DNA from: a virus
Taxonomy: Duplodnaviria; Heunggongvirae; Uroviricota; Caudoviricetes
Strand: one strand, 5' to 3'
Virus record (IMG/VR): IMGVR_UViG_2548876862_000021
Coordinates: 1 to 13,456 of that record
Length of the DNA: 13,456 nucleotides
How positions within the stretch are numbered: position 1 is the first letter of the stretch; the number at the start of each line of letters is the position of its first letter. The translations under genes and the position numbers were made by a program. Under the pieces are notes generated by a model that saw nothing but the letters and a program-made list of their open reading frames with translations, was not told where the DNA came from and did no database searches. Of this stretch, positions 598 through 13,456 are shown piece by piece.

Positions 598-766
598 CGT
601 CTTCTTCCTCGTACATTGAGCTATTCGGATCGCTCATCAGCTCTGCGCAGCAATCGGAGCATACGTGAACTTCCAGCACATGCAGTTTCTGACCGCAGTT
701 AGCGCACGTTAAAGCTCGCTCGACGCTTTCTTTCTGGTATTGAAGGGATTGGGATGGGCTAAGCAT
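590..766 (-). CDS. ninF: NinF-like small zinc-ribbon protein (58 aa)
   Basis: Hand-translated: MLSPSQSLQYQKESVERALTCANCGQKLHVLEVHVCSDCCAELMSDPNSSMYEEEDDE. Two CxxC-type pairs; start ATG overlaps the upstream stop (TAATG). Position matches ninF in the P22/lambda nin set. Below the 60-aa track threshold. Confidence 0.5.
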   Translation of the reverse strand: MLSPSQSLQYQKESVERALTCANCGQKLHVLEVHVCSDCCAELMSDPNSSMYEEEDDE

Positions 767-1125
767 TATTGGATTCTCTGCATCATGAGAAAGACAATCA
801 TGGCGGCGCGGAGGGGATTTTCATGTATAGCTCGCTTAGATTTACAGTAGGCCACACCGCGTGCACCCCACTCGTCTTCATCGAGATTGATAATGCTAAT
901 CCTGTATTTTTCAATAATCGGCCATGCGTCTGCTGGGTTTGCGCATGGGTTAAAGGAACCGCGCTCAACTTCTACTTCAACTGCGTCTCCGTTTACAATG
1001 TCTCCCTCAAATGAGACAAACACCATATCGCCATTCTCACCTTCTTTGTAATCCGGTGATCCGTTATGAATAGCTTCGAATACAGCCACGTTAATTTCAA
1101 AATCACTTAACTGTGAATAATCCAT
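766..1125 (-). CDS. NinX-like hypothetical protein (119 aa)
   Basis: Track ORF 766..1167; I prefer the internal ATG at 1125-1123, preceded by GAGGAA at about 7 nt and sitting 2 nt after the ninE-like stop. Sits between ninE-like and ninF-like as ninX does in P22. No recognisable catalytic motif. Confidence 0.5.
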   Translation of the reverse strand: MDYSQLSDFEINVAVFEAIHNGSPDYKEGENGDMVFVSFEGDIVNGDAVEVEVERGSFNPCANPADAWPIIEKYRISIINLDEDEWGARGVAYCKSKRAIHENPLRAAMIVFLMMQRIQ

Positions 1126-1127
1126 TG

Positions 1128-1304
1128 TCATTTCCTCGCACGATGTCTTAGCCACCGGATATCCCACAGGTGAGCCGTGTAATTGAAGGTTTTTACGTCA
1201 GATTCTTTTGGGATTGGCTTGGGTTTATTTCTGGAGCGCTTCGTTGGAAGGTATTTGCAGTTTTCGCAGATGATGTCGGTGATACTTCGTCGCTGTCGTC
1301 TCAT
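1128..1304 (-). CDS. ninE: NinE-like small basic protein (58 aa)
   Basis: Within track ORF 1128..1364, start at internal ATG 1304-1302, which overlaps the ninB stop (ATGA coupling). Protein [30 protein letters not shown]... Assignment by memory and position. Confidence 0.45.
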
Positions 1305-1741
1305 GCCGCCCTGTCTCCCCATCTCGCTTTCCACTCCAGAGCCAGTCGCGCTTCGTCTGACCACTTAACGCCATGTTCTGTACCGAATGCCTGTATAAGC
1401 TCTAATAGCTCCGCAAATTCGCTTACACGCATCCTGCTGGTTGACTGGCCTATTACCACAAAGCCATTCCCGGCAAGGTTAGGAACAACATCCTGCTGCT
1501 TTAATGCTGCGGTAAACACACACTTCCAGCTTTCTGCATCCAGCCAGCGACCATGCCATTCAACCTGACGAGAGACGTCACCAAGGCAAGCCCAAAGCTT
1601 TCGATTCTGGTCTAAGCTGCGGTTGCGTTCCTGAATGGTTACTACGATTGGTTTGGTTGGGTCTGGAAGAATTTGCTGTACCGCGTGAATAGCGTTTTGC
1701 TGATGTGCTGGGGATCGAATTTCAAAGGTTAGTTTTTTCAT
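1301..1741 (-). CDS. ninB: NinB (Orf-family recombination mediator)
   Basis: 146-aa [59 protein letters not shown]... recognised as lambda NinB family; same length as lambda NinB as I recall. Confidence 0.8.
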
Positions 1742-1934
1742 GACTTCCCTCTCTAACAGATTTCAGGTTATTCCACTCCGTTACCGCACTGCGATAATTC
1801 GCGGCCGCCACAGCGGCGTGGTTAGCGCAGTAGATTTGGCACCCGTTCTCCATGTCGAATATTGTCGGTGATTTTCCGCATTTACATTTTTTGGCACGCG
1901 GTGCGTCTGAACACATTCCGTTAACGGTGTCCAT
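1722..1934 (-). CDS. Small Cys-rich (putative zinc-binding) protein, nin-region, NinA/NinD-position
   Basis: 70-aa ORF with CxC...C...C pattern (CKCGK, CQIYC); GAGGGGGA Shine-Dalgarno upstream of ATG 1934; 3' end overlaps ninB start by 20 nt. Function not assignable. Confidence 0.5.
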   Translation of the reverse strand: MDTVNGMCSDAPRAKKCKCGKSPTIFDMENGCQIYCANHAAVAAANYRSAVTEWNNLKSVREGSHEKTNL

Positions 1935-1957
1935 CAGGATCCCCCTCGTTCTTAATC

Positions 1958-1990
1958 CAATAAAAAAGGGCTACTGTGTAAATAGCCCCT
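1958..1990 (-). terminator. Intrinsic terminator between helicase and nin genes (tR2-like position)
   Basis: On minus strand GGGCTA-TTTACACAG-TAGCCC stem-loop followed by TTTTTTATT, 29 nt downstream of the helicase stop. Confidence 0.5.
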
Positions 1991-2018
1991 GTTATTAGCT
2001 CAGTGATGTAGATGGTCA

Positions 2019-3455
2019 TCAGAATCCTCCTTTCTTCTTGGACTGCGGCTCCTCGCGTTCACGGCGGCGCATTTCAGCAGACTGTTGGTCTGTGTCATAA
2101 ATAGCGCCATTTGCCTGAATGCAATACACCGTGCCGGTATTGCCATGACGATTGAGACGAAGGATTAGTTCGGTTTCACCAGGTGGAACACTGTCATCAA
2201 AAGCACCTTCACGATGGATCCCCACCCAATAATCGCAATCCTGTTCAATCTGCCCTGTATCGCGCGAGTCACTTGGTAATGGGCGTTTATTGGTTCGGCT
2301 TTCCAATGCGCGGTTAAGCTGTGTCAGAAGCACAACAACGCAATCAAGCTCTTTGGCAAGGTTCTTCAATCCTTTGGTGATCATGCCGTAAGCAAGGTCG
2401 TTGCGATCGGCCTTCTCAGCAGTCATTAGTGTCAGGTAATCGACCAGAATCATGCCAACGCATCCTTTTTCTCGCTTGATTCGACGGCTTTCGCTGACGA
2501 TTTGAGCCAGAGATAATCCCGGCGTGTCGTCGATGTAAAGCATGTCGATTTCACTCAAGCGATTGGCTGTTTCGATCGCCCTGTTGAAGTCACCATCGTA
2601 ATCACCCTGATAGCCGTCATCGGCGTCATTTGTCGCCGGAAGGTAAAAAATATTCGGGTTAACACCAGACTTCTGCCCTACCAGTTTTTCCAGTATCTGG
2701 TCACCTGGCATTTCAAGGCTGAACATCAGAGCGGGCTTTTTCTCATGCACTGCGCAATTGATTGCCATCTGGCTGTATAGCGTCGTTTTCCCCATCTTAG
2801 GGCGAGCGCCAATGACAAACAGAGAGCCTTTCACCAGACCTTTCGGTGACAGCATCCTGTCCAGCGATGGGATCCCTGTGCTCATTCCTCGTTGTTCGCC
2901 TGACGGGTCAAATCGCTTCTCAAGGTCGCTAACCCAGTCTTCCATGACCTCACCAAATGAACGAAGGCCGCGACGCGATCCGGTTTTTGCATGGTCTGTC
3001 AGTTGCGTGAAAATCGACTGAATAGCTTCGTACTTCTGTGTTGCAGTCATTCCGTTGCGGGAATAGAGCAATTCCGTCGCTTCAGTCATGCGGTTGATGG
3101 CGTAGCGTTCCATTGCGGTTTCACGAACCTGCATTGCATAGGCAATGATGTTTGCTGCGCTTGGCGTGTTCTTTGCGATCTCAGCGATATAAGCAAAACC
3201 GCCAACAGACGCCGTTAACGATTTACGCTCCAGTTCATCGAAAAGCGTCAGGCCATCTACTGGCTTTTGCTCCCGGTGCATTCTGGTTATTTCTTCGAAA
3301 AGGATTTTGTGTGGTCGACTGTAAAATGAGTCAGGCTTCAGCATCGCCAGAACCTTCTGGACGCGCTCACTGCTGTCATCATCCAGAAGCAATCCACCAA
3401 TCACCGCCTGCTCTGCCTCGATGCTATGGGGCGGCGCATAAAAATTATCGGTCAT
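2019..3455 (-). CDS. Replicative DNA helicase, DnaB family (P22 gene 12-like)
   Basis: Strong resemblance to E. coli DnaB throughout (PHSIEAEQAVIGGLLLD, Walker A GARPKMGKTT, LVDYLTLM, LTQLNRALESR). Track starts at GTG 3470; I prefer ATG 3455-3453, preceded by GAGGGTG. Overlaps the O-like stop by 11 nt. Confidence 0.9.
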   Translation of the reverse strand: MTDNFYAPPHSIEAEQAVIGGLLLDDDSSERVQKVLAMLKPDSFYSRPHKILFEEITRMHREQKPVDGLTLFDELERKSLTASVGGFAYIAEIAKNTPSAANIIAYAMQVRETAMERYAINRMTEATELLYSRNGMTATQKYEAIQSIFTQLTDHAKTGSRRGLRSFGEVMEDWVSDLEKRFDPSGEQRGMSTGIPSLDRMLSPKGLVKGSLFVIGARPKMGKTTLYSQMAINCAVHEKKPALMFSLEMPGDQILEKLVGQKSGVNPNIFYLPATNDADDGYQGDYDGDFNRAIETANRLSEIDMLYIDDTPGLSLAQIVSESRRIKREKGCVGMILVDYLTLMTAEKADRNDLAYGMITKGLKNLAKELDCVVVLLTQLNRALESRTNKRPLPSDSRDTGQIEQDCDYWVGIHREGAFDDSVPPGETELILRLNRHGNTGTVYCIQANGAIYDTDQQSAEMRRREREEPQSKKKGGF

Positions 3456-4335
3456 CGTGTTCACCCTCACGAACTTTCAGGTAGGTATTATCGTTAAGCA
3501 GGAAATCAAATCCCTTTTTGTGCCAGACGGTTCCGCGCTGATGGTTTGGGCGCTCTTCGAACATCCATCGGCAATTTTCGCCTACGTAGCTCAAATAATT
3601 TCTCCAGTCCTGCATCGTGAAACCATGCCCGTCAAGCTGGCGGGTTATCACTCCGGCTTTGCGCCAGAACGTTCGGATCTGGTTTTTACGCTTGTCATTC
3701 AGTGCGCGGATTCTTGGCGCTTCAGGAAGGATTTCGTGGTAAGCATCGACAACATCCTGACAGCTAACGGAAGGTTTTTTCTTGTCAGACTTTTTGTCTG
3801 CTGTGGCACTCTCTAATACGTCAGTATTAGAGATATTATTTATATTATTGTTTATGGACAACCGTTGGACAACCGTTGGACAATCTCCGCTGAGAGCCGC
3901 GCCATTACTGGTGTTTGCGTTGGACAACCGTTGGACAACCGTTGGACAATTTTTTGCCTGAAAATCGTCATATTTAACGATTGTAAACAGGCTAAATTTC
4001 TTCCCCATCGAGCAAATATTAAGCATACCTTTCGACTCAAAAGTCCGTAATAAGCTCCGAACTTTGTTGTCGGGGATGAATGTTTCTCTGACCAGCGACG
4101 GGCGTCCAGTTATCATCTGACCGCGATCAACAGTTATCGGACCGATATCCGTATTGACGACAGTAGATTCGTGATTAGCCTTGAGGATTAAGTGAAGCCA
4201 AAGATGTACTGCCTGAGAGTCCTTATAGAGCCTGCTGTCCATAAACTGGCGGTGTATAGAGACATACCCCATACTGGATGCCTCCTGATGTTGTACAGGG
4301 TTATGCCTGTAATCAGCTAACTTAACGACGCCCAT
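3445..4335 (-). CDS. Replication initiator, lambda O-like (iteron-binding)
   Basis: 296-aa ORF immediately upstream of the helicase; contains the ori iterons inside its coding sequence (encoded peptide repeat CPTVVQRLSN), as in lambda O; AGGAG 6 nt upstream of the ATG. Confidence 0.75.
   Translation of the reverse strand: MGVVKLADYRHNPVQHQEASSMGYVSIHRQFMDSRLYKDSQAVHLWLHLILKANHESTVVNTDIGPITVDRGQMITGRPSLVRETFIPDNKVRSLLRTFESKGMLNICSMGKKFSLFTIVKYDDFQAKNCPTVVQRLSNANTSNGAALSGDCPTVVQRLSINNNINNISNTDVLESATADKKSDKKKPSVSCQDVVDAYHEILPEAPRIRALNDKRKNQIRTFWRKAGVITRQLDGHGFTMQDWRNYLSYVGENCRWMFEERPNHQRGTVWHKKGFDFLLNDNTYLKVREGEHDDR
3813..3950. repeat. Replication origin: two clusters of three direct ~11-bp iterons (GTTGGACAACC) plus flanking AT-rich stretch
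   Basis: Seen directly: 3856-3884 GGACAACCGTTGGACAACCGTTGGACAAT and 3919-3950 CGTTGGACAACCGTTGGACAACCGTTGGACAAT; AT-rich 3813-3855 (TATTAGAGATATTATTTATATTATTGTTTAT) lies downstream in the direction of O transcription, the lambda ori arrangement. Confidence 0.7.
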
Positions 4336-4483
4336 GTTTCACTCCTGCTTTGGCTAGTCTGTAAACACCAACAAGGCGCTCTGCGAACGCCCTGTTATTT
4401 GCTGCGGCTACCACTAATCCCTCAGGTGAATCAGGGTGTCGAATCTCTTCTTTTTCCTGGTATTTCTTACGACGTTTTGTCAT
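4322..4483 (-). CDS. Hypothetical small basic protein (53 aa) between cII and O
   Basis: Hand-found ORF MTKRRKKYQEKEEIRHPDSPEGLVVAAANNRAFAERLVGVYRLAKAGVKHGRR, AGGAG 6 nt upstream of ATG 4483-4481; 3' end overlaps the O start by 14 nt. Below track threshold. Confidence 0.35.
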   Translation of the reverse strand: MTKRRKKYQEKEEIRHPDSPEGLVVAAANNRAFAERLVGVYRLAKAGVKHGRR

Positions 4484-4517
4484 AATTACTCCTGTGGATT
4501 GATCCAGTCTTTCTACA

Positions 4518-4796
4518 TCAGGCCTCGAAGAATTCGCCGTTCTTCGGGGCTTTTTCTTTTGTCAGCATTCTGGCTACTTTCTTAGCCAGTTCCGCCAACT
4601 CCTCGTCTTCAACACCCCATTCAAGAACAGCCAGAAGCATTCCCATTTTGGGGATGAAGCTATCTTTCCATCGCGAAATTTGCGATTCATTAATCCCTAA
4701 CGCGTCGGCAACCTTTCGCTGACCACGTACAGCAATTCGATTCAGGATGTTGCTTGTAATTGCATTCGCTTTCTTGCGAGTACTTGTAAGTTGCAT
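4518..4796 (-). CDS. cII: cII-like transcriptional activator
   Basis: Track ORF 4518..4883 contains MQLTSTRKKANAITSNILNRIAVRGQRKVADALGINESQISRWKDSFIPKMGMLLAVLEWGVEDEE..., aligning with lambda CII (QISRWK...MLLAVLEWGV). Start set at ATG 4796-4794 so that nutR lies outside the gene. Confidence 0.8.
   Translation of the reverse strand: MQLTSTRKKANAITSNILNRIAVRGQRKVADALGINESQISRWKDSFIPKMGMLLAVLEWGVEDEELAELAKKVARMLTKEKAPKNGEFFEA
4522..4560 (+). terminator. Intrinsic terminator on the strand antisense to the cII 3' end (oop-like)
   Basis: 11-bp stem (GCCTCGAAGAA / TTCTTCGGGGC, one G-U) with 7-nt loop, directly followed by TTTTTCTTTT. Candidate extended -10 (TGtCATAAT, 4478-4486) about 40 nt upstream. 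Confidence 0.5.
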
Positions 4797-4854
4797 ATGT
4801 AAGTATTTCCTTAACAAATAAGAAGTTATGCGCATCAAATTATGCGCGTTGTAT

Positions 4855-4898
4855 TCCCGCATTTCGGCGGGAATGATGACCATGACTGTTAAAGAGCG
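4855..4898 (-). promoter_or_regulatory. nutR-like site: boxA (CGCTCTTTAACA) followed by boxB hairpin
   Basis: Read on minus strand: boxA at 4898-4887, 14-nt spacer, boxB TCCCGC-CGAAAT-GCGGGA at 4872-4855; the boxB 18-mer is identical to the one upstream of N. Confidence 0.6.
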
Positions 4899-4904
4899 GT
4901 GTTA

Positions 4905-5101
4905 CTATTTGTTTTTCTTGTTGCTTGGGAAAGGACGAACTTCCTCTCCAATCACACTGCCATCAGGCTTTACCGTAACCATGATGTTACGGCCTGCCAG
5001 AATGGCCTTGCTGATAGCGCACTGGATTACACCAAAGTCACTGGCTGCTTTAGCCTGTCCATGGATTTTGGCGTAATCGGCAAGTGTCATTCGAATCATA
5101 T
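4905..5101 (-). CDS. cro: Cro-like repressor
   Basis: [62 protein letters not shown] aligns with lambda Cro ([22 protein letters not shown]...PFPSNKK). Track start is GTG 5105; I prefer ATG 5101-5099 with GGAGAG upstream. Confidence 0.8.
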
Positions 5102-5128
5102 GCACTCTCCGTTATTAACCATGAACAA

Positions 5129-5198
5129 AGAATACCACAGGTATTCAAAGCAATCAATACTCAGGGTATTTTTAGTTTAAGTACCTTAGCTATTAGAA
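5129..5198. promoter_or_regulatory. OR region: three 15-bp operators (AATACC-N3-GGTATT) with divergent PR and PRM
   Basis: 5131-5145 AATACCACAGGTATT (perfect palindrome), 5156-5170 AATACTCAGGGTATT (1 mismatch), 5180-5194 AGTACCTTAGCTATT (2 mismatches); centre spacing 25 and 24 bp. PR on minus: -35 TTGATT (5157-5152), 17-bp spacer, -10 TATTCT (5134-5129). Candidate PRM -10 TAGAAT 5193-5198. Confidence 0.65.
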
Positions 5199-5205
5199 TT
5201 AAGCT

Positions 5206-5922
5206 ATGGAAAATAAAAAATCACTGACGACAGAACAGCTCGAAGACGCTAAGCGGCTTAAGGCTTTGTATGAGTCAAAAAAGAAAGAATTGGGAATAAC
5301 CCAATACTCAATCGCTGATGAACTGGGTATCACCCAAGGAGCGGTAGGGCATTATCTTAATGGCAGAAACGCGCTAAACGTTGAGGTCGCATCTGGTTTT
5401 GCACGTTTGTTGCAAGTCTCAATTGCTGATTTTAGCCAGTCAATTGCTGCCAAGGTTGCAGAACAGGCAGAAAGCCTTAAGAGCGATGCCAACGTAAGGT
5501 ATGCAGGGGAATACAGAGCAGGAAAGAGGTATCCGGTGTTAAGCAGTATCCAGGCTGGCTCGTGGTGTGAAGCATGCGAACCATACACCATTAAAGACAT
5601 AGATGTTTGGCTTGAGTCTGACGCGCATATTCAAGGTAATGCGTTCTGGCTTAAAGTGGAAGGTGATTCAATGACGGCACCGGTTGGGTTAAGCATTCCA
5701 GAGGGAACATTCGTTCTTTTCGATACCGGAAGGGAGGCGATCAACGGCAGCTTGGTCATAGCAAAACTTTCTGACTCTAACGAAGCAACATTCAAGAAGC
5801 TGATAATCGACGGCGGAAATAAATACCTCAAGGGACTTAATCCTGCATGGCCTCTCGTGCCAATCAATGGAAACTGCAAGATTATAGGCGTTGCAATTGA
5901 GACAAAACTAAGGCTGGTTTGA
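5206..5922 (+). CDS. cI: CI-type prophage repressor (HTH N-terminal domain plus S24 LexA-like autocleavage domain)
   Basis: 238 aa, collinear with lambda CI ([24 protein letters not shown] / FWLEVEGNSMTAP / FKKLIRD all matched by close variants). No Shine-Dalgarno upstream of the ATG. Confidence 0.9.
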   Translation: MENKKSLTTEQLEDAKRLKALYESKKKELGITQYSIADELGITQGAVGHYLNGRNALNVEVASGFARLLQVSIADFSQSIAAKVAEQAESLKSDANVRYAGEYRAGKRYPVLSSIQAGSWCEACEPYTIKDIDVWLESDAHIQGNAFWLKVEGDSMTAPVGLSIPEGTFVLFDTGREAINGSLVIAKLSDSNEATFKKLIIDGGNKYLKGLNPAWPLVPINGNCKIIGVAIETKLRLV

Positions 5923-5939
5923 TCACGCAAGGGGCGATT

Positions 5940-6308
5940 ATGGTTGGAACCGCTATAGCAAGCTTTTTTGGGATGTTGGCAATCTCGACAATTTACGGCT
6001 TAGCGCATGCTTTTATTGCGAAATCTCTATCAGAAAAAATAAGCCAGGCTTGGGCGCATAGATCAGCTCGTTTCATGATTCTGGTGATCATAGCAATACA
6101 AGGGATATCTGCATTTATCCTCTATGGATCAAGCTTATACCTATTGTATCAAGGCGCGACATTTACGCCTTACACCAGTGATTACGGAACTCTATACGAT
6201 GGTAGTGAAGACATCACTGTGGCTTGGATCGTCTTTGGTTTATCTATGGCCGTGTCTGTTGTAGCAGACATCATTAAGGTAATTCTCGTCTTAACCTTCG
6301 CTGACTAA
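5940..6308 (+). CDS. Small multi-pass membrane protein co-transcribed with cI (rexAB/sieB-position; candidate exclusion or abortive-infection factor)
   Basis: Track ORF 5919..6308 begins at a TTG overlapping the cI stop; ATG at 5940 has AAGGGG about 6 nt upstream. Several long hydrophobic segments consistent with transmembrane helices (AIASFFGMLAISTIYGLAHAFIA, FMILVIIAIQGISAFILYG, VAWIVFGLSMAVSVVADIIKVILVL). Confidence 0.6.
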   Translation: MVGTAIASFFGMLAISTIYGLAHAFIAKSLSEKISQAWAHRSARFMILVIIAIQGISAFILYGSSLYLLYQGATFTPYTSDYGTLYDGSEDITVAWIVFGLSMAVSVVADIIKVILVLTFAD

Positions 6309-6438
6309 CCTATAATCCCGGCAGCAATAGCTATCGGGATCCACTTCACATATCCCGCATAAAAAGCACTGAACAAGCAGACACCGAAAAAATAAATATC
6401 CTTTGTATTCATTTGCTTATCATTATTTCACCAAAAAT

Positions 6439-6480
6439 AAATACCTTGGGTATTTACACAATAAAATACCTACAGTATTC
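6439..6480 (+). promoter_or_regulatory. OL region: two operators of the same AATACC-N3-GGTATT family, with PL
   Basis: 6439-6453 AATACCTTGGGTATT (perfect), 6464-6478 AATACCTACAGTATT (1 mismatch), centres 25 bp apart. Candidate PL -35 TTTACA 6452-6457, 17-bp spacer, -10 TATTCT 6475-6480, the same -10 hexamer as PR. Confidence 0.6.
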
Positions 6481-6526
6481 TTTAGCCATCAGCAGGACGC
6501 TGGAAGCCAAACGGAACAGATTGGCA

Positions 6527-6568
6527 GGCTCTTTAACATTGATGGGATTGTCCCGCCGAAATGCGGGA
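6527..6568 (+). promoter_or_regulatory. nutL-like site: boxA (GGCTCTTTAACA) followed by boxB hairpin
   Basis: boxA 6527-6538 resembles the rrn/lambda boxA consensus; boxB TCCCGC-CGAAAT-GCGGGA at 6551-6568, identical to the nutR boxB; located between PL and N. Confidence 0.6.
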
Positions 6569-6675
6569 ACCAAAGAGTAGTTGGCTTTGGGGTGACGTGA
6601 AGTGCAGCTGCACGACGGCAACCGGAAGATAAGCACCCGGCGCGTCACCGCCAAAGTCAATCATCGGAGGTCAAC

Positions 6676-6975
6676 ATGACAGTAGTCATTACATATCTGG
6701 CTGACGATAACGCCAGAAATCGCCGCAGAGCACGCAGACAGGCTCAACGTGAGCAGGCAATGCAAGAGCAGCGACTGGCGCGAAAAATTGCGCTAAAGCT
6801 CTCTGGTTGCGTCAGAGCAGATAAAGCAGCATCACTCGGAAGCCTTCGCTGCAAGAAGGCAGAAGAAGTCGAGAGTAAACAGAATCGCATTTACTACCGC
6901 AAGCCACGCAGTGAAATGGGTGTGACTTGTGTTGGTCGCCAGAAAATGAAATTAAGCAGCAAACCACTTATTTGA
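6676..6975 (+). CDS. N: N-like transcription antiterminator
   Basis: 99 aa; N-terminal arginine-rich motif (NARNRRRARRQAQREQA); C-terminus RIYYRKPRSEMGVTCVGRQKMKLSSKPLI parallels lambda N (RTWYSKPGERGITCSGRQKIKGKSIPLI); GGAGG 6 nt upstream; directly downstream of nutL. Confidence 0.75.
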   Translation: MTVVITYLADDNARNRRRARRQAQREQAMQEQRLARKIALKLSGCVRADKAASLGSLRCKKAEEVESKQNRIYYRKPRSEMGVTCVGRQKMKLSSKPLI

Positions 6976-6983
6976 GGTGAGAT

Positions 6984-7070
6984 ATGGAAGAAGAATTTGA
7001 AGAGTTCGAAGAGCATCCGCAGGATGTGATGGAACAGTACCAGGACTATCCGTATGACTACGACTATTGA
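6984..7070 (+). CDS. Hypothetical 28-aa highly acidic, aromatic-rich peptide
   Basis: Hand-found: MEEEFEEFEEHPQDVMEQYQDYPYDYDY, preceded by GAGGTGAG. Very short, so coding status is uncertain. Confidence 0.3.
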   Translation: MEEEFEEFEEHPQDVMEQYQDYPYDYDY

Positions 7071-7254
7071 TAAAAATCAATGGTGTGGACAATTCAAGCG
7101 ATGCAATGGATGCAAGCTGCAATCGGAATGCATGGTTAAGCCTGAAGAAATGTTTCCTGTAATGGAAGATAGGAAATATGTCGATAAATGGGCAATACGA
7201 ACGACGGCAATGATTGCCAGAGAACTTGGTGAACTGAACAACAAGGCTGCCTGA
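7054..7254 (+). CDS. Hypothetical small Cys-containing protein (66 aa)
   Basis: Track ORF with C-x5-C-x2-C-x5-C spacing; weak ribosome-binding site; followed by a hairpin plus T-run. Confidence 0.35.
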   Translation: MTTTIDKNQWCGQFKRCNGCKLQSECMVKPEEMFPVMEDRKYVDKWAIRTTAMIARELGELNNKAA

Positions 7255-7290
7255 TGGTGGCCTTTATTTTCTTATTTGAGAGGAATTAAT

Positions 7291-7914
7291 ATGTCATCAA
7301 TCCGCTTAACTACGAGAATGAAAGAGGAAATCGCTCGTAACGCTTTAATTAAGTCTGGGGTTTTCACTGAGCTTGAAGAAGTAACAAAGTTAAAGAACCA
7401 GCTTGCACTTGACGCCAGAGTTATTGCGTTTGGCGGTAAAAAGAAAACTGAGGAAGTGGATCAGTTATCATCCAAGTTGGTAGCTATAAGTGAAGAACTT
7501 GAAAAGATGGGATGTTCATTTTACTCATACGATTTTCGTTCTACTTCAATTTATCTGACTGTATCTGGCAGAAGGGTTGGATGGCATTCATATGGGAAAG
7601 ACGGCAACGGCGAAGATATATTTCCCCCTACTCCAACCAAAGATAAATGCATGTTTGACGCAGAACACGAAATAACAAAAAGGTTTGATGAAATCTGCGC
7701 ATTGCAACAAAAACTTGAAGCCAAGAAAAAGGATATCGAATCAAATGTATGGGCTGCTTTGAACTCAGTCACAACAGTTAAGCGACTTATTGAGGTTTGG
7801 CCTGAAAGCAAAGAATTGCTACCAAAAGAAGCAGATAAAGCAAGTACAGCACTTCCTGCTTTACGGGTAGAAGATTTGAATAAGATGACTGGACTTCCTT
7901 CCGAGGCTGCATAG
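7291..7914 (+). CDS. Hypothetical protein (207 aa), first gene of low-GC cassette
   Basis: Track ORF 7276..7914; start set at ATG 7291 preceded by GAGAGGAA. GC about 38-40% in hand-counted 60-nt samples versus about 48-50% in flanking genes. No recognisable motif. Confidence 0.6.
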   Translation: MSSIRLTTRMKEEIARNALIKSGVFTELEEVTKLKNQLALDARVIAFGGKKKTEEVDQLSSKLVAISEELEKMGCSFYSYDFRSTSIYLTVSGRRVGWHSYGKDGNGEDIFPPTPTKDKCMFDAEHEITKRFDEICALQQKLEAKKKDIESNVWAALNSVTTVKRLIEVWPESKELLPKEADKASTALPALRVEDLNKMTGLPSEAA

Positions 7915-7977
7915 TCGGCCTTTATTTTTAGCATAAACAACAGAATAAACACTGCACTGAATTATTTGAGGTTAGAT

Positions 7978-8448
7978 ATGACAAAATCATGGAGCGTACC
8001 TTTTCCTGAATCAGAAACTGAACATGAGGGAATGCCTGTTTTCTGGAGATTCCAGGCGACAGTTGAAGAAGATGGAATCAAAATATTCGCACTTCAATAT
8101 ATAGCTTTTCATCAGACAGAGCATTATGCATGGTTGGTTCCTGCGCATTGGATTGTTAATTTTAAACCAGCACCAAATCAGTGGTTACAGGAATGGAAAC
8201 AAAAGAGAAATAGATATGCAATTAAGAAAGTAGCAAAAAATGCAGAAAGATCTTTTGCATTCCCAACGAAGAAACTTGCCATTGAGAGTTTATTGCGCCG
8301 GAAGAAATACCATTTAATGAGAATCAAACAAGATTTGGCTGTTGTATCAACTCTTGTTGATGGGATGAAGAATATTGATACATCAACACCAGATATTGAA
8401 TATAACTTTGGGCACAACCAAGAAACAGAAAATTGGGTATTTTATTAG
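7978..8448 (+). CDS. Hypothetical protein (156 aa), second gene of low-GC cassette
   Basis: Track ORF 7966..8448; start set at ATG 7978 preceded by GAGGT. Low GC; no recognisable motif. Confidence 0.6.
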   Translation: MTKSWSVPFPESETEHEGMPVFWRFQATVEEDGIKIFALQYIAFHQTEHYAWLVPAHWIVNFKPAPNQWLQEWKQKRNRYAIKKVAKNAERSFAFPTKKLAIESLLRRKKYHLMRIKQDLAVVSTLVDGMKNIDTSTPDIEYNFGHNQETENWVFY

Positions 8449-8552
8449 TACGAGTAAGCACTATGTATTCATTCCAACGAGTGAATACACGGAGCAATGT
8501 CGCTCGTAACTAAACAGGAGCCGACTTGTTCTGATTATTGGAAATCTTCTTT

Positions 8553-8578
8553 GCCCTCCAGTGTGAGGGCTTTTTTAT
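8553..8578 (+). terminator. Intrinsic terminator downstream of the low-GC cassette
   Basis: GCCCTC-CAGTGT-GAGGGC stem-loop immediately followed by TTTTTTAT. Confidence 0.6.
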
Positions 8579-8642
8579 ATGCATACCAATAACGCTTCAC
8601 TTGAGGCGTTTTCGTTATGCAATCAAATATAAGGAGTTACCC

Positions 8643-8777
8643 ATGATGCACTTTCAGCTCGCGGGTAGCGGCGTCATGTCCGCTTTCTACCCGCACGAAT
8701 CTGAATTATCACGCCGAGTTAAACAATTAATCAGAGCAGCAAAGAAACAACTGGAGGCGTTATGCGCAATGAGATAG
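8643..8777 (+). CDS. cIII: cIII-like small protein (44 aa; FtsH-inhibitor family)
   Basis: MMHFQLAGSGVMSAFYPHESELSRRVKQLIRAAKKQLEALCAMR resembles the lambda CIII core (AIAGWPVAGCPSESLLERITRKLR); AAGGAG upstream. The 79-aa track ORF 8538..8777 is an upstream TTG extension of it. Confidence 0.55.
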   Translation: MMHFQLAGSGVMSAFYPHESELSRRVKQLIRAAKKQLEALCAMR

Positions 8778-8914
8778 CCATCAATCACCAGATGCTTCGT
8801 GCTGCACAGAACAAAGCAGTAATAGCTAGATTTATTGGTGATTCCAAAATGTGGCTTGAAGCAAATAAAGCGATGAAATCAGCTATCAACCTTCCGTGGT
8901 ATCGCAGGAAATGA
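8762..8914 (+). CDS. Kil-like small protein (50 aa), overlapping the cIII-like 3' end
   Basis: Hand-found: MRNEIAINHQMLRAAQNKAVIARFIGDSKMWLEANKAMKSAINLPWYRRK. GGAGG upstream; overlap with cIII mirrors the lambda cIII/kil arrangement. Similarity to lambda Kil is from uncertain recall of an ATFIGDEKMF-type motif. Confidence 0.4.
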   Translation: MRNEIAINHQMLRAAQNKAVIARFIGDSKMWLEANKAMKSAINLPWYRRK

Positions 8915-8989
8915 GTTTTACAGATAACTGGTCAGACGAAGAATTCATTCGTCAGATGAAAGAATTAATCGGTAACGAAGGAGATATTC

Positions 8990-9160
8990 ATGTCACTTGC
9001 AACCACAGTGAAGGAGAGCAAGTTACAGAGACGCATGTACACGCAGAAAGCTCTCTGGTATCGCCATAATGGTGACCGCGAAGGAATGCGGGTATGCCTT
9101 AATTTGTCCCGAGTCGAAGTATTAAATCAGCGTTATTTCCTTGGGCCGTGTCCATTCTGA
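8990..9160 (+). CDS. Hypothetical small protein (56 aa)
   Basis: Hand-found: MSLATTVKESKLQRRMYTQKALWYRHNGDREGMRVCLNLSRVEVLNQRYFLGPCPF. AAGGAG upstream; ends 8 nt before the SSAP gene. Confidence 0.35.
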   Translation: MSLATTVKESKLQRRMYTQKALWYRHNGDREGMRVCLNLSRVEVLNQRYFLGPCPF

Positions 9161-9168
9161 GGTGAATT

Positions 9169-9876
9169 ATGGATTTGAATAAATTCGATGAGCCATTCAG
9201 CCCTGAAGATATCGAATGGCGAATACAGCAAAGCGGTAAAACACGCGATGGCAAAGTGTGGGCTATGGTGCTGGCTTATGTCACGAACCGGGCAATCATG
9301 AAACGCCTGGACGATGTTTGTGGCAAAGCAGGATGGCGCAATGAATACCGCGATATTCCCAACAACGGCGGCGTTGAATGCGGCATATCAATAAAGATTG
9401 ATTCCGAATGGGTAACCAAATGGGATGCTGCTGAAAACACGCAGGTAGAAGCCGTCAAAGGTGGTCGTTCAGGTGCAATGAAGCGCGCTGCCGTTCAGTG
9501 GGGAATCGGTCGGTATCTGTATAACCTTGAGGAAGGTTTCGCACAAACATCTCTCGACAAAAAGCAGGGATGGCACAGGGCAAAACTCAAGGATGGAACA
9601 GGATTTTACTGGCTCCCTCCATCGCTGCCAGGCTGGGCAATCCCAGCATCAGATAACAAACCATCACCAGAAAATACCAACCAGAAATCTCCATCGGTTG
9701 ACTGCGAGCAAATCCTGAAAGACTTCAGCGATTATGCGTCAACAGAAACTGACAAGAAAAAACTCATCGAGCGTTATCAGCGTGACTGGCAATTAATGGC
9801 TGGCAACGAGGAAGCGCAGGCTAAATGCGTTCAGGTAATGAACATCAGAGTTAACGAACTAAAACAGGCGGCATAA
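9169..9876 (+). CDS. Single-strand annealing protein, Rad52/Sak-like
   Basis: 235 aa; region KGGRSGAMKRAAVQWGIGRYLY fits the Rad52-family pattern; stop abuts the SSB start (TAAATG); GAGGTG upstream. Confidence 0.6.
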   Translation: MDLNKFDEPFSPEDIEWRIQQSGKTRDGKVWAMVLAYVTNRAIMKRLDDVCGKAGWRNEYRDIPNNGGVECGISIKIDSEWVTKWDAAENTQVEAVKGGRSGAMKRAAVQWGIGRYLYNLEEGFAQTSLDKKQGWHRAKLKDGTGFYWLPPSLPGWAIPASDNKPSPENTNQKSPSVDCEQILKDFSDYASTETDKKKLIERYQRDWQLMAGNEEAQAKCVQVMNIRVNELKQAA

Positions 9877-10383
9877 ATGGCAAGCAGAGGCGTAAATAAG
9901 GTGATTATCCTTGGTCGGGTAGGACAAGACCCGGAAGTTCGATACTCACCATCAGGAACAGCGTTCGCTAACCTGACAATAGCCACGTCAGAACAATGGC
10001 GAGATAAAAATACTGGCGAGCAAAAGGAATTGACTGAATGGCATCGTGTTGCTGTATCCGGGAAACTGGCTGAGGTCGTGGGGCAGTATGTGAAAAAAGG
10101 TGATCAGATTTATTTCGAGGGAATGCTGAGAACCAGAAAGTGGAAAGACCAGTCAGGACAAGACCGTTACACAACCGAGGTTCATGTCGGAATTAATGGC
10201 GTGATGCAAATGCTTGGCGGCATTGGCGACAGCAAACAACAAGCAGCCAGCAGGCAATCACAGAAGCCACAGCAGCAATCATCACCAGCACAACACAACG
10301 AACCACCTATGGATTTTGACGACGATATACCCTTTGCACCAGTAACTCTCCCCTTCCCTCGTCACGCTATTCACGCAATTTAA
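9877..10383 (+). CDS. ssb: Single-stranded DNA-binding protein (SSB) with a 15-aa extension beyond the canonical DDDIPF tip
   Basis: N-terminus [23 protein letters not shown]..., [14 protein letters not shown] and [11 protein letters not shown] all match E. coli SSB; the ORF continues [15 protein letters not shown] before the stop. Confidence 0.9.
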
Positions 10384-10396
10384 TCAGGAGAAAATC

Positions 10397-10690
10397 ATGC
10401 CAGCGCCTCTGTATTGTGCGGATGACGCGCGCCGCTGTTCCGGCAATTCCGTATCGGAGGTGCTGGATAAATTCAGAAAAAACTACGATCGAATAATGTC
10501 TCTACCGCAGGAAACGAAAGAGGAAAAGGAATTTCGCCACTGCGTATGGCTTGCAGAGAAAGAAGAACGCGAGCGAATTTACCAGACATCAATCCGACCA
10601 TTCCGCAAAGCCACATATACCCACTTCCCTGAAATTGACCCGCGCCTGCGTAATTACCGCTCACGCTATGGCGCTATCAGTAATGACTGA
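10397..10690 (+). CDS. Hypothetical protein (97 aa)
   Basis: Track ORF; AGGAG 6 nt upstream of the ATG. Confidence 0.55.
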
Positions 10691-10700
10691 GGAATTTACC

Positions 10701-10865
10701 ATGAGAGGACTTGCATACAATCCCGGCATTCTTCCGGCAGAAATGATTATTCGCCAACGCGTAAAGCCAATGCCATCGAGAGAGGAATTGCTTAAGAGAA
10801 ATAGTTTCGGTTCTGTTAATGACAACAAATATCTGAATGCGATGTTGCGGAGTGGGAAGAAATGA
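10701..10865 (+). CDS. Hypothetical small protein (54 aa)
   Basis: In-frame ATG inside track ORF 10551..10865, preceded by GAGGAA; stop overlaps the next start (ATGA). Confidence 0.4.
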
Positions 10866-11374
10866 AACAAATGTCACTAATTGAGATGGATGGTTTTCTG
10901 AAAGGTAAATGCATCCCAAGTGATTTAAAGGTTAACGAAACAACCGCTGAATATCTGGTGCGTAAGTTTGGTGAACTCGAATCAAAACTGGAAACGGCGT
11001 TGCGGGAGTGTCGTTCTGCTGGAATCACGATTGACAACCTTGAAGCCAAGTGCGATGCGCTGGCGGCGGAGAATGCGGCACTGAAGGCTGGCGCTATGGA
11101 CGAAATCAAGGTTATCAACCGTGGAGGTCAGGCATATTGCGTAAAAGATGGAGTGCAAGTTAATCCCATGTATGCAAGAGGGTGGAATGACTATCGCGCA
11201 AAGTCTATGCAATCAGACACCCCAGCCACCGATGCTTTCCTGGCTGAAGTTCGGGCGCAGGGCGTGGAGATGGCTATGGAGCATATGCAGTCGAGCGGTT
11301 CGTTAACATTTGGAGATTGCTACATATCACTTAACGAGTTCGCCGCCCAGCTTCGCAAAGGAGGCAACCAGTGA
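10862..11374 (+). CDS. Hypothetical protein (170 aa), predicted coiled-coil segment
   Basis: Track ORF; heptad-like segment [40 protein letters not shown]; translationally coupled on both sides. Confidence 0.6.
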
Positions 11375-11886
11375 GCGAAATTAATTACCAGGCACTGCGT
11401 GAGGCGGCGGAACGTGCAATTCCAGCAATGGAACGCCTGTTAATGTTGCCAGCTGATGATGATTTGTTAAGTGAACAGGAACTTAAAGATTACGGTGTGG
11501 ATATTGATGCGCTCAACGCCTTCAAATTTCTGACCGGACCAGAAACCGTGCTGGCGCTGCTGGATGAACGGGAAAGAAACCAGCAATACATCAAACGCCG
11601 CGACCAGGAGAACGAGGATATTGCGCTAACGGTAGGGAAACTGCGTGTTGAGCTTGAAGCAGCAAAATCAAAACTCAACGAGCAGCGTGAATATTACGAA
11701 GGCGTTATCTCTGATGGGAGCAAGCGTATTGCTGAACTGGAGGAGCGGGAAATACTGCTCCCGGAACGTAGCAGCATGCTTCATCGAACAGATTTTCACG
11801 ATGATTACCAAACGGTAATGGCATACAAAGTTTCTGAAGTCATCGCTGCAATCCGCGTCGCTGGCATTCGCATCAAAGGAGAGTGA
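11371..11886 (+). CDS. Hypothetical protein (171 aa), possibly Ead/Ea22-like
   Basis: Track ORF with GTG start overlapping the previous stop, AAAGGAGG 6 nt upstream; Ead/Ea22-like label is from memory of similar prophage proteins, unverified. Confidence 0.5.
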   Translation: MSEINYQALREAAERAIPAMERLLMLPADDDLLSEQELKDYGVDIDALNAFKFLTGPETVLALLDERERNQQYIKRRDQENEDIALTVGKLRVELEAAKSKLNEQREYYEGVISDGSKRIAELEEREILLPERSSMLHRTDFHDDYQTVMAYKVSEVIAAIRVAGIRIKGE

Positions 11887-11887
11887 T

Positions 11888-12151
11888 ATGGCAACTTTAA
11901 CAAAAAAAGAACGGGCATGGTTGAACGAATTACAGGACGTTCTTGATCGCTGCCCATCACCGAAAAAAATTGGTTTTTACACCATTGGCGATAAAAGCAT
12001 TTACCTGTATGACCTGCGCCGCATGGATGAAATCATGGAGGCTCTTGATAATCGTTCGTCGATGGATTGGTGTGTTGCTGTCCATGATATGAATGCCGGA
12101 TTTGATGAAAGGATTTTGTTCCCCTCATCAGTTGAAAGCACTGCGGGTTAA
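11888..12151 (+). CDS. Hypothetical protein (87 aa)
   Basis: Track ORF; AAAGGAG upstream; 1-nt gap after the previous stop. Confidence 0.55.
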   Translation: MATLTKKERAWLNELQDVLDRCPSPKKIGFYTIGDKSIYLYDLRRMDEIMEALDNRSSMDWCVAVHDMNAGFDERILFPSSVESTAG

Positions 12152-12161
12152 GGAGTAACAC

Positions 12162-12848
12162 ATGACCACTATTACCAAAGAACGTATTGAATTGTTCATT
12201 AAAAATCCGCTTGAAAACGGGCTTACCCGTGGTGAACAAATGGAACTGGCACGGATTGCGCTGGCATCGCTGGAAGCAGATCCAGTTGCTTATATTTTCA
12301 AACATCCGGCCGGGAAATTATTCTGGTCTTTAACGGATGAAAGCAATAAAGAGCAAGCGGACGTTATTCCTGTTTATGCTGCCGCGCCTGCGTCGGTTGT
12401 GCCGGATAATGCATCAGAGCCTCTTGCTTATGCTTACAAAGAGCTTACGCCTGAGATTATGCGCAACCATTTAGCTGTATTCGAGCGATATGGAATAGCC
12501 CCAAACGATAGCTCTACCACAATTCAGGCACTGCGAATCGCGCTGGATGGCATAGAGCGGAGAGACGCCATGCTTCATGGTGCCGAACCTGTAAGCCAAA
12601 CTTACAAGTTGAACCAGCTATCGGGCAACTATCCGGTAACTCCGGATGGTTGGATAAGATGTAGTGATCGAATGCCGGAAGACACCAAAATGTTACTGGC
12701 ATTTAGTCAAGGTGAAATCGTGGCCGCATATTGGAACTGGGTTGTAAATCCAATTGATTACAAAAAATATAGAGCTTTCACGTATTTATCAGGAAATATC
12801 TTGGATGACGTAACTCACTGGATGCCGCTACCAGAGCCTCCACTTTGA
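12162..12848 (+). CDS. Hypothetical protein (228 aa), C-terminal DUF551-like region
   Basis: Track ORF; TAAGGAG upstream; C-terminal ...VTHWMPLPEPPL resembles the DUF551 signature as I recall it. Confidence 0.55.
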   Translation: MTTITKERIELFIKNPLENGLTRGEQMELARIALASLEADPVAYIFKHPAGKLFWSLTDESNKEQADVIPVYAAAPASVVPDNASEPLAYAYKELTPEIMRNHLAVFERYGIAPNDSSTTIQALRIALDGIERRDAMLHGAEPVSQTYKLNQLSGNYPVTPDGWIRCSDRMPEDTKMLLAFSQGEIVAAYWNWVVNPIDYKKYRAFTYLSGNILDDVTHWMPLPEPPL

Positions 12849-12944
12849 AAGCGAAGCTTATACATATCTTTTACATCAGCAATCTATTGTTAATCTCCAA
12901 TCAATGTTACGTTGTCATCTCACTCATGCTTTGGAGGTAGTGAT

Positions 12945-13124
12945 ATGTCTTGTCCAAAATGCGGTTCTGGAAATATTGCAAAAGAAAAAACAATGCGTGG
13001 ATGGTCTGATGATTATGTGTGCTGCGATTGCGGATACAACGACTCTAAAGACGCATTTGGAGAGCGTGGTAAAAACGATTTTGTCAAAATTAATAAAGGA
13101 CGCGAAGGCAACGAAAAAAGCTAA
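12945..13124 (+). CDS. Small zinc-ribbon protein (59 aa)
   Basis: MSCPKCGSGN...CCDCGYN (CxxC...CxxC); GGAGG upstream of ATG 12945. The track ORF 12912..13124 uses an upstream TTG. Confidence 0.5.
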   Translation: MSCPKCGSGNIAKEKTMRGWSDDYVCCDCGYNDSKDAFGERGKNDFVKINKGREGNEKS

Positions 13125-13187
13125 TTTATTTATTCATATATGAAAACAATGTAACCAATATTCGAATTGAAGAACTGAAAGAACACC

Positions 13188-13212
13188 AAGCCGCCTGATG
13201 GCGGTTTTTTAT
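13188..13212 (+). terminator. Intrinsic terminator ending the leftward-operon accessory block
   Basis: CCGCC-TGAT-GGCGG stem-loop followed by TTTTTTATT. Confidence 0.6.
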
Positions 13213-13255
13213 TACCTGATTTGCAGGTTCGATTCCCTATTCGGAGATAGCACTC

Positions 13256-13456
13256 ATGCAACACGAACTACAGCCTGATTCCCTGGTTGATTTGAAATTC
13301 ATCATGGCCGATACTGGCTTCGGTAAAACCTTCATCTATGACCGGATTAAGTTCGGAGACCTGCCTAAAGCCAAAGTTATCCACGGGCGAGCAAGATGGT
13401 TATATCGTGACCATTGTGAATTCAAAAATAAGCTCTTAAGCCGCGCCAATGGGTAA
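13256..13456 (+). CDS. Excisionase / AlpA-family DNA-binding protein (probable Xis)
   Basis: 66 aa; ...MADTGFGKTFIYDRIKFGDLPKAKVIHGRARWLY... fits the AlpA/excisionase pattern; GGAGAT upstream; stop at the last base of the window. Confidence 0.5.
   Translation: MQHELQPDSLVDLKFIMADTGFGKTFIYDRIKFGDLPKAKVIHGRARWLYRDHCEFKNKLLSRANG

Follow-up and report, generated by a model that had tools for sequence, protein, structure and literature searches.

A tightly packed six-gene block in a lambdoid prophage is likely a mosaic accessory stretch of the leftward early operon and not a single multi-protein machine

We analysed the window, that is, the whole 13,456-nucleotide (nt) stretch comprising positions 1 to 13,456 of the virus record IMGVR_UViG_2548876862_000021 (Caudoviricetes), in which six open reading frames (ORF1 to ORF6) are packed together on the plus strand at positions 10397-12848. 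These had earlier been interpreted without database searches (hereafter the sequence-only reading) as a translationally coupled unit serving one multi-protein function. We observed that the first gene of the block encodes the anti-RecBCD protein Abc2, while the remaining genes belong to families whose alleles and domains are exchanged between phages. We consider it likely that the block is a mosaic accessory 'ea' stretch of the pL operon, made up of Abc2 and separately acting genes, and not a six-subunit complex. As the genes reassort independently between phages, they are hard to regard as one multi-protein machine.

The linkage of the six genes was evaluated in related loci, taken as the 80 closest viral loci for each anchor (ORF1 to ORF6) in one viral collection; the sample is phylogenetically biased and its redundancy was removed only crudely. 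All six proteins were scored against the loci using tblastn and hidden Markov model (HMM) thresholds, a scoring that very divergent alleles may escape and in which many of the 'partial' matches are shared modules. Only loci with at least 2.5 kilobases (kb) on both sides were used, and identical profiles were collapsed, giving 223 distinct allele profiles from 400 related loci. Full-length members of all six families did not occur together in any of these profiles. In the profiles anchored on ORF5 (n=31), Abc2 was present in 4, DUF2737 (the family of ORF2) in 4, ORF3 in 3, ORF4 in 11 and ORF6 in 7, so that 27 of the 31 were without Abc2. The Abc2-anchored profiles (n=58) contained ORF5 in 2 cases, ORF3 in 26, ORF4 in 24 and ORF6 in 19, and almost never as the same allele. 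These counts do not bear out the claim that the coupling implies one multi-protein function. When we examined the DNA by megablast, pieces of the block could be found in 563 phage records and in 3,388 of 5,426 complete E. coli genomes, but at least 80% of the block in one place was seen in none of the 563 records and in none of the 5,426 genomes.

The strongest links were those of Abc2 followed by DUF2737 (58/58 from the Abc2 side and 44/58 from the DUF2737 side) and of DUF2737 with an ORF3-type head directly after it (57/58 when anchored on DUF2737). Both links can nevertheless be broken; Abc2 and DUF2737 are separated either by an insert of about 93 amino acids (aa) or where DUF2737 lies behind a RecT-type module without Abc2. 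We also noted that the gene for this ~93-aa protein (MKLNIDLGKYVITGTKHDL...) sits directly upstream of DUF2737 in some phages (L421, L424 and L423/L425, all at 4723-5004), either between Abc2 and DUF2737 or behind the RecT-type module lacking Abc2. From its placement, it looks like a moron-like insertion at the Abc2/DUF2737 junction.

Reassortment could also be followed in a single related locus, L403, whose DNA is 99.7% identical to the window over 11548-13210. The ORF5, ORF6 and EaG proteins of this locus were 98.6-100% identical to those of the window, and its ORF3, ORF4 and single-stranded DNA-binding protein (SSB) were 68%, 77% and 70% identical, respectively. The L403 prophage has a different excisionase and integrase, a lambda-type Exc/Int, and lies at another chromosomal site. 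Similarity breakpoints were found at the gene junctions (at about 10380, 10700, 10850, 11350, 11870 and 12160) and also within the genes (at about 10960, 11540/11660, 11730, 12250/12280 and 12600-12680), and the internal ones were the module boundaries, as defined with locally built domain HMMs. Thus, the Ead heads (the ORF4 type) were joined to the ORF4 C-terminal module (O4C) in 49 distinct proteins, to the ORF3 C-terminal module (O3C) in 23 and to DUF551 in 14, or else to other tails. DUF551 followed EaA-type heads (the ORF6 type) in 84 cases with the middle module of ORF6 and in 81 without it. Explicit chimeras were also seen (L049:6448-7371, L093:3859-4446 and L052:7057-7695); the first of these combines, in one protein, an ORF3 head (95%), a coiled-coil piece of ORF4 (90%) and an ORF6-like DUF551 tail. 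The contents of slot 3 to slot 5 vary among phages P22, HK620 and VSe13 and the window.

What is conserved, judging from these alignments, is the junctions and the family order only. The independent scattering that, by the terms of the sequence-only reading itself, would refute it was seen for alleles and domains; family order and junction sequences were retained, so that some linkage remains. Since order and spacing are kept while alleles and modules are exchanged, we take these heads, tails and junctions to be joints for recombination together with expression signals, which would fix the order and the spacing while the contents are swapped. Modular exchange is the classic picture of lambdoid genomes.

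The packing itself was as had been described. The six ORFs (97, 54, 170, 171, 87 and 228 aa) were all present in the ORF list, and the junctions could be read directly from the letters: ATGA at 10862-10865, GTGA at 11371-11374, and TGA-T-ATG, in which a single nucleotide (11887) separates stop from start. Gaps of 10 nt lie between ORF1 and ORF2 and between ORF5 and ORF6. Every start is preceded, 6-9 nt upstream, by a purine-rich Shine-Dalgarno sequence (from ORF1 to ORF6: CAGGAG, TGAGGA, GGAGTGGGAAG, AAAGGAGG, AAAGGAGAG and TAAGGAG). This packing is compatible with translational coupling, but the boundary drawn around six genes is arbitrary, since the run begins at the annealase gene at 9169. 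The annealase/SSB gap is 0 and the SSB/ORF1 gap 13 nt, and gaps stay at or below 13 nt all along from 9169 to ORF6; further upstream, cIII/Kil and Kil/next ORF overlap by 16 and 19 nt. An EaG gene (12945-13124), which the sequence-only reading had not included, comes after ORF6 in the same transcription unit.

We also examined the junctions in relatives, counting only those in which both flanking termini were homologous, with starts and stops mapped by homology. The ORF1/2 gap was 10 nt in 143/144 relatives, the ORF2/3 spacing -4 in 170/170, ORF3/4 -4 in 90/90, ORF4/5 +1 in 15/15 and ORF5/6 +10 in 63/63, while the annealase/SSB gap was 0 in 71/71. As the spacings are identical in relatives, the junction arrangement must be inherited and not a chance feature of the window. 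The tight packing can therefore be put down to operon economy and shared ancestry, as order and spacing are fixed while the alleles shuffle. The invariant C-terminal peptide of the ORF3 family, QLRKGGNQ, is encoded by AAAGGAGG, which is the Shine-Dalgarno sequence of the next gene (window 11350-11374). Because of this, conservation of the peptide may stem from the translation signal and the recombination joint, and not from the function of the protein.

ORF1 (10397-10690, plus strand) is Abc2, anti-RecBCD protein 2. Its 97 aa matched Pfam PF11043 over residues 1-97 of the 97-position profile (1.1e-61; 205.5 bits against a cut-off of 25), as well as phrog_656 ('abc2 anti-RecBCD') and the PDB chain 8b1t_A, which was solved with RecBCD (6.8e-56). 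It is 91% identical to P22 Abc2 and 94% to HK620 HkaJ. P22 Abc2 binds RecC, redirecting RecBCD to serve the phage annealase, and in the cryo-electron microscopy structure its Pro68 enters the active site of PpiB (PMC9836394); residue 68 of the translated ORF1 is also Pro. From the 91% identity, we infer that ORF1 likewise binds RecC and alters RecBCD. In P22 and HK620, abc2 is counted with the recombination module, beside the annealase and either abc1 or SSB (PMC5928155), and a Rad52-family annealase and an SSB indeed lie directly upstream of ORF1. As Abc2 belongs to the recombination module, ORF1 is not part of a function-unknown block 'downstream of the recombination module', which is where the sequence-only reading had placed it. 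The further statement that none of the six has an assignable activity does not hold either, since ORF1 is Abc2, in P22 a RecBCD modifier, and ORF4 a homologue of Ea22, for which a phenotype has been published.

The annealase (9169-9876) matched the Rad52/22-family N-terminal domain (Pfam PF04098, 5e-26), and its residues 157-235 were 63% identical to residues 134-205 of P22 Erf. The protein is thus a chimera of a Rad52/22-type N-terminal domain with 79 C-terminal residues like the Erf tail, and it may be through the Erf-like tail that it communicates with SSB or the Abc2-modified RecBCD. The SSB (9877-10383; Pfam PF00436, 1.6e-36) has the position of the HK620 SSB (hkaK) beside abc2 (PMC5928155).

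ORF2 (10701-10865, plus strand) is a DUF2737 protein of 54 aa, of the P22 orf56 / HK620 HkaI / HK97 gp38 family. It matched Pfam PF10930 over residues 1-53 of 53 (4.9e-31; 106.8 bits against a cut-off of 25), and was 94% identical to HkaI and 75% to P22 orf56. It is strongly basic, with an isoelectric point (pI) of 10.7. Sequence and profile searches of the PDB gave no solved-structure relative. A longer form of ORF2, with a TTG start (10551-10865, 104 aa) and overlapping the end of abc2, was considered and rejected, as the homologues and the gene calls of the related loci L401-L404 back the 54-aa form with the ATG start at 10701. By this comparison, the longer form is an artefact of mechanical ORF calling.

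ORF3 (10862-11374, plus strand; 170 aa) is a modular protein of the HkaH/EaE family. In alignments it was seen to have a conserved N-terminal head, a heptad-rich segment, a variable middle, a conserved motif and the C-terminal QLRKGGNQ. It matched phrog_614 (6.9e-58) and no Pfam family; it is 55% identical to HK620 HkaH and matches P22 EaE in part. No relative of ORF3 was found in the PDB by sequence and profile searches. Slot-3 relatives (VSe13 gp29 and HK629) carry the label 'HNH endonuclease', which we rejected, since Pfam finds no HNH domain in VSe13 gp29, HkaH, EaE or ORF3. VSe13 gp29 is the gene at 3469-4095 of locus L002 (Salmonella phage VSe13), and its label is likely a propagated mis-annotation. 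The sequence-only reading had assigned a coiled coil to one member of the block; coiled-coil-like heptads do exist, but in two members, ORF3 and ORF4.

ORF4 (11371-11886, plus strand; 171 aa, GTG start) is an Ead/Ea22-like protein, as seen from its match to Pfam PF13935 (7.7e-38; 130.6 bits against a cut-off of 27). Its residues 1-128 are 66% identical to residues 1-105 of lambda Ea22 (the N-terminal and coiled-coil half), and residues 62-105 are 77% identical to P22 EaD. In BLASTP the similarity to lambda Ea22 stops at Ea22 residue 105 of 182, and the C-terminal half of Ea22 was not matched. Ea22 proteins form tetramers and consist of a short N-terminal region, followed by a coiled coil and by an acidic C-terminal domain that varies (PMC7093339, PMC10834534). 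ORF4 has the same three-part architecture, with a short region at the N-terminus, a coiled coil in the middle (heptad-rich window at about 82-110) and a separate C-terminal domain. Non-lambda variants of Ea22 with other C-terminal domains have been described (PMC10834534), and ORF4 is typical of these; elsewhere, other modules stand in the place of O4C. The mosaicism of ea22 has also been published, with DUF551 as a 'portable domain' among the C-terminal domains (PMC10834534). Deletion of ea22 led to a shorter latent period, a larger burst, lower host survival and changed lysogenisation, and a pro-lysogenic phenotype has been published for the family (PMC7093339, PMC10834534). In the PDB, ORF4 had no match beyond chance, and no chain named Ea22 was matched.

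ORF5 (11888-12151, plus strand) is a small acidic protein of 87 aa, of phrog_1714, a family restricted to Enterobacterales. It is 94% identical to VSe13 gp27, and it fills the slot of P22 EaI and HK620 HkaF, although it is unrelated to both. Its fold is predicted confidently, and the model resembles no annotated relative.

ORF6 (12162-12848, plus strand; 228 aa) is an EaA-like modular protein with an EaA-type N-terminal head, a middle module that matches phrog_6847 only, and a C-terminal DUF551. The DUF551-like C-terminus that had been noted is real (residues 163-227; Pfam PF04448, 7.5e-20; 72 bits against a cut-off of 22). Identity to P22 EaA is 61% for residues 1-76 and 41% for residues 153-228, and residues 1-49 are 80% identical to HkaE. 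The dATP/dGTP pyrophosphohydrolase domain PF04447, which is present in the middle of EaA and of VSe13 gp26, was not found in ORF6 by Pfam. A protein identical to ORF6 has already been deposited (P0001, 'DUF551 domain-containing protein'). The structure model of ORF6 was unusable (a predicted local distance difference test, pLDDT, of 44), and sequence and profile searches of the PDB gave no relatives of ORF5 or ORF6. For the uncharacterised proteins of the block, searches of Pfam, NCBIfam, PHROGs and PADLOC yielded nothing beyond DUFs and families without a name. ORF3, ORF4 and ORF6 are all acidic, with pI values of 4.8-5.1.

Together, these observations suggest how such a stretch may work. Ribosomes would probably pass from gene to gene via the overlapping or near-abutting stops and starts. 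Abc2 would bind RecC, and RecBCD, which otherwise destroys the ends of phage DNA, would be turned into an engine of resection for the upstream annealase and SSB. ORF2 to ORF6 would be accessory 'ea' genes, each dispensable by itself and acting on its own. ORF4 and, judging from their architecture, ORF3 and ORF6 would be acidic modular proteins with a conserved N-terminal head, in most cases a segment for coiled-coil oligomerisation, and a C-terminal domain that can be exchanged. If the analogy with the Ea22 proteins of lambda and of Shiga toxin (Stx) phages holds, these three would most likely bind host factors and bias lysis-lysogeny and the physiology of the host soon after infection or induction. 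The conserved termini and junctions (the head sequences and the Shine-Dalgarno-bearing tails) would act as homologous recombination joints, at which alleles and domains are shuffled.

The idea that the six genes are subunits or steps of one multi-protein function, with the coupling setting the stoichiometry, was the proposal of the sequence-only reading, and we consider it quite unlikely. It would account for the overlapping or abutting stops and starts with their Shine-Dalgarno sequences, for the family order and junction spacing kept in relatives, and for the fusion of ORF3, ORF4 and ORF6 modules in single proteins of other phages. However, ORF1 already works with the upstream annealase and SSB, ORF5 mostly travels without ORF1-3, and all six genes were found together only in near-identical copies of this prophage. 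In P22, HK620 and VSe13 the slots hold unrelated genes (EaF/orf45, EaI/HkaF and a PF04447 domain), and the junctions are just as tight outside the block. In addition, according to PMC10834534, published yeast two-hybrid surveys gave lambda Ea22 no partner. Some points do weigh against the interpretation of a mosaic accessory stretch that we prefer. Family order was kept in the sampled loci, with Abc2 followed by DUF2737 in 153/161, DUF2737 followed directly by the ORF3 family in 134/181, the ORF3 family followed by Ead in 168/195 and ORF5 followed by the EaA family in 42/44; such a conserved order, with invariant spacing, is also what is expected of a co-functional unit. The module fusions among ORF3, ORF4 and ORF6 could be read as a Rosetta-stone sign of shared function. 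The role proposed for ORF3 and ORF6 comes from their architectural likeness to Ea22 only, and both pL transcription and translational coupling are things that we infer.

Other explanations concern what the accessory proteins do. ORF3, ORF4 and ORF6 (and perhaps ORF5) might be oligomeric scaffolds carrying exchangeable C-terminal 'warhead' domains that have been diversified in an arms race, and aimed at host defence or cell-cycle factors, so that they would be counter-defence or host-takeover proteins and not lysogeny regulators; this explanation appears unlikely to us. It is in keeping with the extensive domain swapping among the three proteins, with their acidic pI, as for the C-terminal domains of Ea22 (PMC10834534), with the dATP/dGTP pyrophosphohydrolase module that relatives carry on the same scaffold, with the host-takeover genes in the neighbourhood (Ral, Abc2, Kil and cIII), and with a very high allele diversity. 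But the only experimental phenotypes of the family are modest lysis-lysogeny effects (PMC7093339), and in the papers on accessory-gene screens that we examined, none of the block's families was described as a hit or a named control apart from Abc2, which served as a control (Abc1, which is unrelated, was a hit). Far more tentatively than for the mosaic itself, and with considerable doubt, ORF3, ORF4 and ORF6 might form one combinatorial system, in which conserved N-terminal heads and coiled-coil segments for oligomerisation present interchangeable acidic C-terminal domains (O3C, O4C, DUF551, the pyrophosphohydrolase and others), swapped across the three slots by recombination at the conserved junctions, with ORF5 as a dedicated slot-6 partner; ORF5 nearly always precedes an EaA-type head (the 42 of 44 given above). 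If this were true, the ea region would be a panel of proteins that bind host factors and would generate diversity among them, either for counter-defence or to control the cell cycle of the host. It is extremely unlikely that the block is a moron, namely a defence or superinfection-exclusion cassette which the prophage carries and the lysogen expresses. Such cassettes are frequent in prophage accessory regions, and the annotation of VSe13, a P22-like relative, places sieB and genes for superinfection exclusion in the same operon, on the upstream side of the recombination genes. Against this, the PADLOC defence-system models gave the block proteins no significant match (chance-level matches only, E >=0.015), no promoter-like site was seen on the coding strand, no strong terminator brackets the genes, and they form part of the pL operon, which the repressor controls, sharing its orientation and with coupled junctions. 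We rejected the defence cassette on the PADLOC and the promoter and terminator scans.

Judged by its annotated genes, the window is the early part of a temperate, P22-like lambdoid prophage of E. coli. The minus strand carries cro (4905-5105) and cII, an O-like gene for replication, the gene of a DnaB-type helicase, and NinB. The cI-type repressor (5206-5922) is on the plus strand, and the leftward early operon comes after it, with an N-like antiterminator (6676), Ral (7054), an Nmad5-domain protein of 207 aa (7291-7914), an ORF of 156 aa (7978-8448), cIII (8643), Kil (8762), a small ORF of 57 aa (8896-9069), the annealase, the SSB and the block, all on the plus strand. The 156-aa and 57-aa ORFs match no Pfam family and are kept in L401, L402 and L404. 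The Nmad5 gene ('nucleotide modification associated domain 5'; Pfam Nmad5, full length, 4.6e-70) lies directly after Ral and is present in L401-L404 too; its product is a possible DNA- or nucleotide-modification, anti-restriction accessory protein. The six-gene block would be the distal part of this leftward (pL) operon in an HK620/P22-like prophage and would lack a promoter of its own; from the gene order (cI, N-like, Ral, cIII, Kil and so on), its transcription would start at pL and depend on N antitermination.

The last gene of the operon is the EaG homologue (12945-13124, plus strand), a small zinc-ribbon protein that is 93% identical to both P22 EaG and HK620 HkaD. It gave a weak, sub-threshold match to the Lar-like (restriction alleviation) family PF14354 (22.9 bits against a cut-off of 28.6). 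If the gene is called as the longest ORF (TTG start at 12912), it comes out too long. On its 3' side lies an intrinsic terminator-like stem-loop at 13188-13207 (plus strand; an 8-bp stem with 5 G-C pairs, then TTTATT), which by its form and position is the site that closes the leftward transcription unit. It is the strongest terminator-like site in the region and the only one with a strong G+C-rich stem and a T-run, although the number of terminator-like sites is at chance level; a second, weaker match on the plus strand lies at 12269-12286 inside ORF6 (a 6-bp stem with 3 G-C pairs). The Rfam scan of the window gave no match and no promoter-like site was found on the plus (coding) strand in 9000-13456, and hidden RNA or regulatory elements were rejected on these grounds.

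The prophage ends with a TorI-like excisionase (13256-13456, plus strand), which is 98% identical (65/66) to HK620 hkaC. In HK620, attP sits between the TorI-like xis and int; the end of the prophage implies the same placement here, which would explain why no integrase is found 3' of the excisionase. The window from 4162 to 13456 recurs at 99.98-99.99% identity in draft E. coli assemblies, and in L401/L402/L404 the host csc (sucrose) or dsdC-dsdXA-emrYK-evgA genes come straight after the excisionase gene. The dsdC-dsdXA-emrYK-evgA genes are presumably the neighbourhood of the CPS-53 (KpLE1) cryptic prophage in K-12.

The type of region is already known from the P22 and HK620 genome papers and from the exo-xis/Ea22 literature, and identical proteins are present in public databases. 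The block therefore carries little weight as a discovery, and its main yield is in corrections: Abc2 is to be counted with the recombination module, the slot-3 'HNH endonuclease' label is without Pfam support, and tight stop/start coupling in phage early operons is, by itself, no evidence for a protein complex. In function, DUF2737, HkaH/EaE, phrog_1714 and EaA/DUF551, four families of the six, are still dark, although thousands of Enterobacterales prophages carry them, Stx phages among these. The pattern of module swapping is a concrete guide for choosing test constructs.

When we compared the block with known systems, the exo-xis region of lambda and Stx phages (orf60a, orf63, orf61, orf73, ea22, ea8.5) was found to occupy the equivalent place, from the recombination genes to xis. 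The sequence-only reading had located the block where lambda carries its ea/b-region genes; the position is that of the ea genes (the exo-xis region), but not that of the b region, which attP and int separate from xis in lambda. The exo-xis region holds Ea22, the relative of ORF4 described above, while the lambda proteins orf60a, orf61, orf63 and ea8.5 gave no BLASTP match to the window proteins (orf73 was outside the comparison). The recombination module also differs, being Gam/Bet/Exo in lambda and Abc2/annealase/SSB in the window.

The P22 series abc2-orf56-eaE-(orf45, eaF)-eaD-eaI-eaA-eaG shares its position, orientation and slot order with the window (early-left, from erf/abc to xis). The identities were 91% for Abc2, 75% for orf56/DUF2737 and 93% for EaG, and the Ead core, EaA head and DUF551 tail are common to both. 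P22 has abc1 where the window has SSB, and the window annealase is of the Rad52 type with only the C-terminal tail of Erf. The window lacks P22 orf45 and eaF, its ORF5 is unrelated to EaI, and its ORF3 matches EaE only in part; the middle of P22 EaA is the PF04447 pyrophosphohydrolase, whereas the middle of ORF6 is different. Salmonella phage VSe13 has the same slot order as the window, with gp27 similar to ORF5 and gp26 carrying PF04447.

The CPS-53 (KpLE1) prophage carries yfdQRST, in which YfdS is a DUF551 protein, like the C-terminus of ORF6. The likeness is at the level of the DUF551 domain and of the RefSeq name 'YfdS family' in neighbouring matches, not of a direct alignment, and YfdQ and YfdR (DUF2303 and an HD domain) have no counterpart in the window. 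Over-expression of the CPS-53 cluster affects host physiology, through DnaA/replication initiation and oxidative stress (PMC4776307). The HK620 record describes the HK620 integrase as similar to that of CPS-53.

HK620 itself, with hkaJ-hkaI-hkaH-hkaG-hkaF-hkaE-hkaD-hkaC, is the closest named phage by layout. It has a Sak4 annealase, its HkaF is unrelated to ORF5, its HkaE is without the middle module of ORF6, and its ORF3 and ORF4 alleles are about 50% diverged from those of the window, with insertions and deletions. Its junction types are nevertheless the same (a 10-nt gap, ATGA, a 4-nt overlap and a 1-nt gap), its SSB adjoins abc2, and its proteins are identical to those of the window at 94% for HkaJ, 94% for HkaI, 55% for HkaH, 48% for HkaG, 93% for HkaD and 98% for HkaC, the TorI-like Xis.

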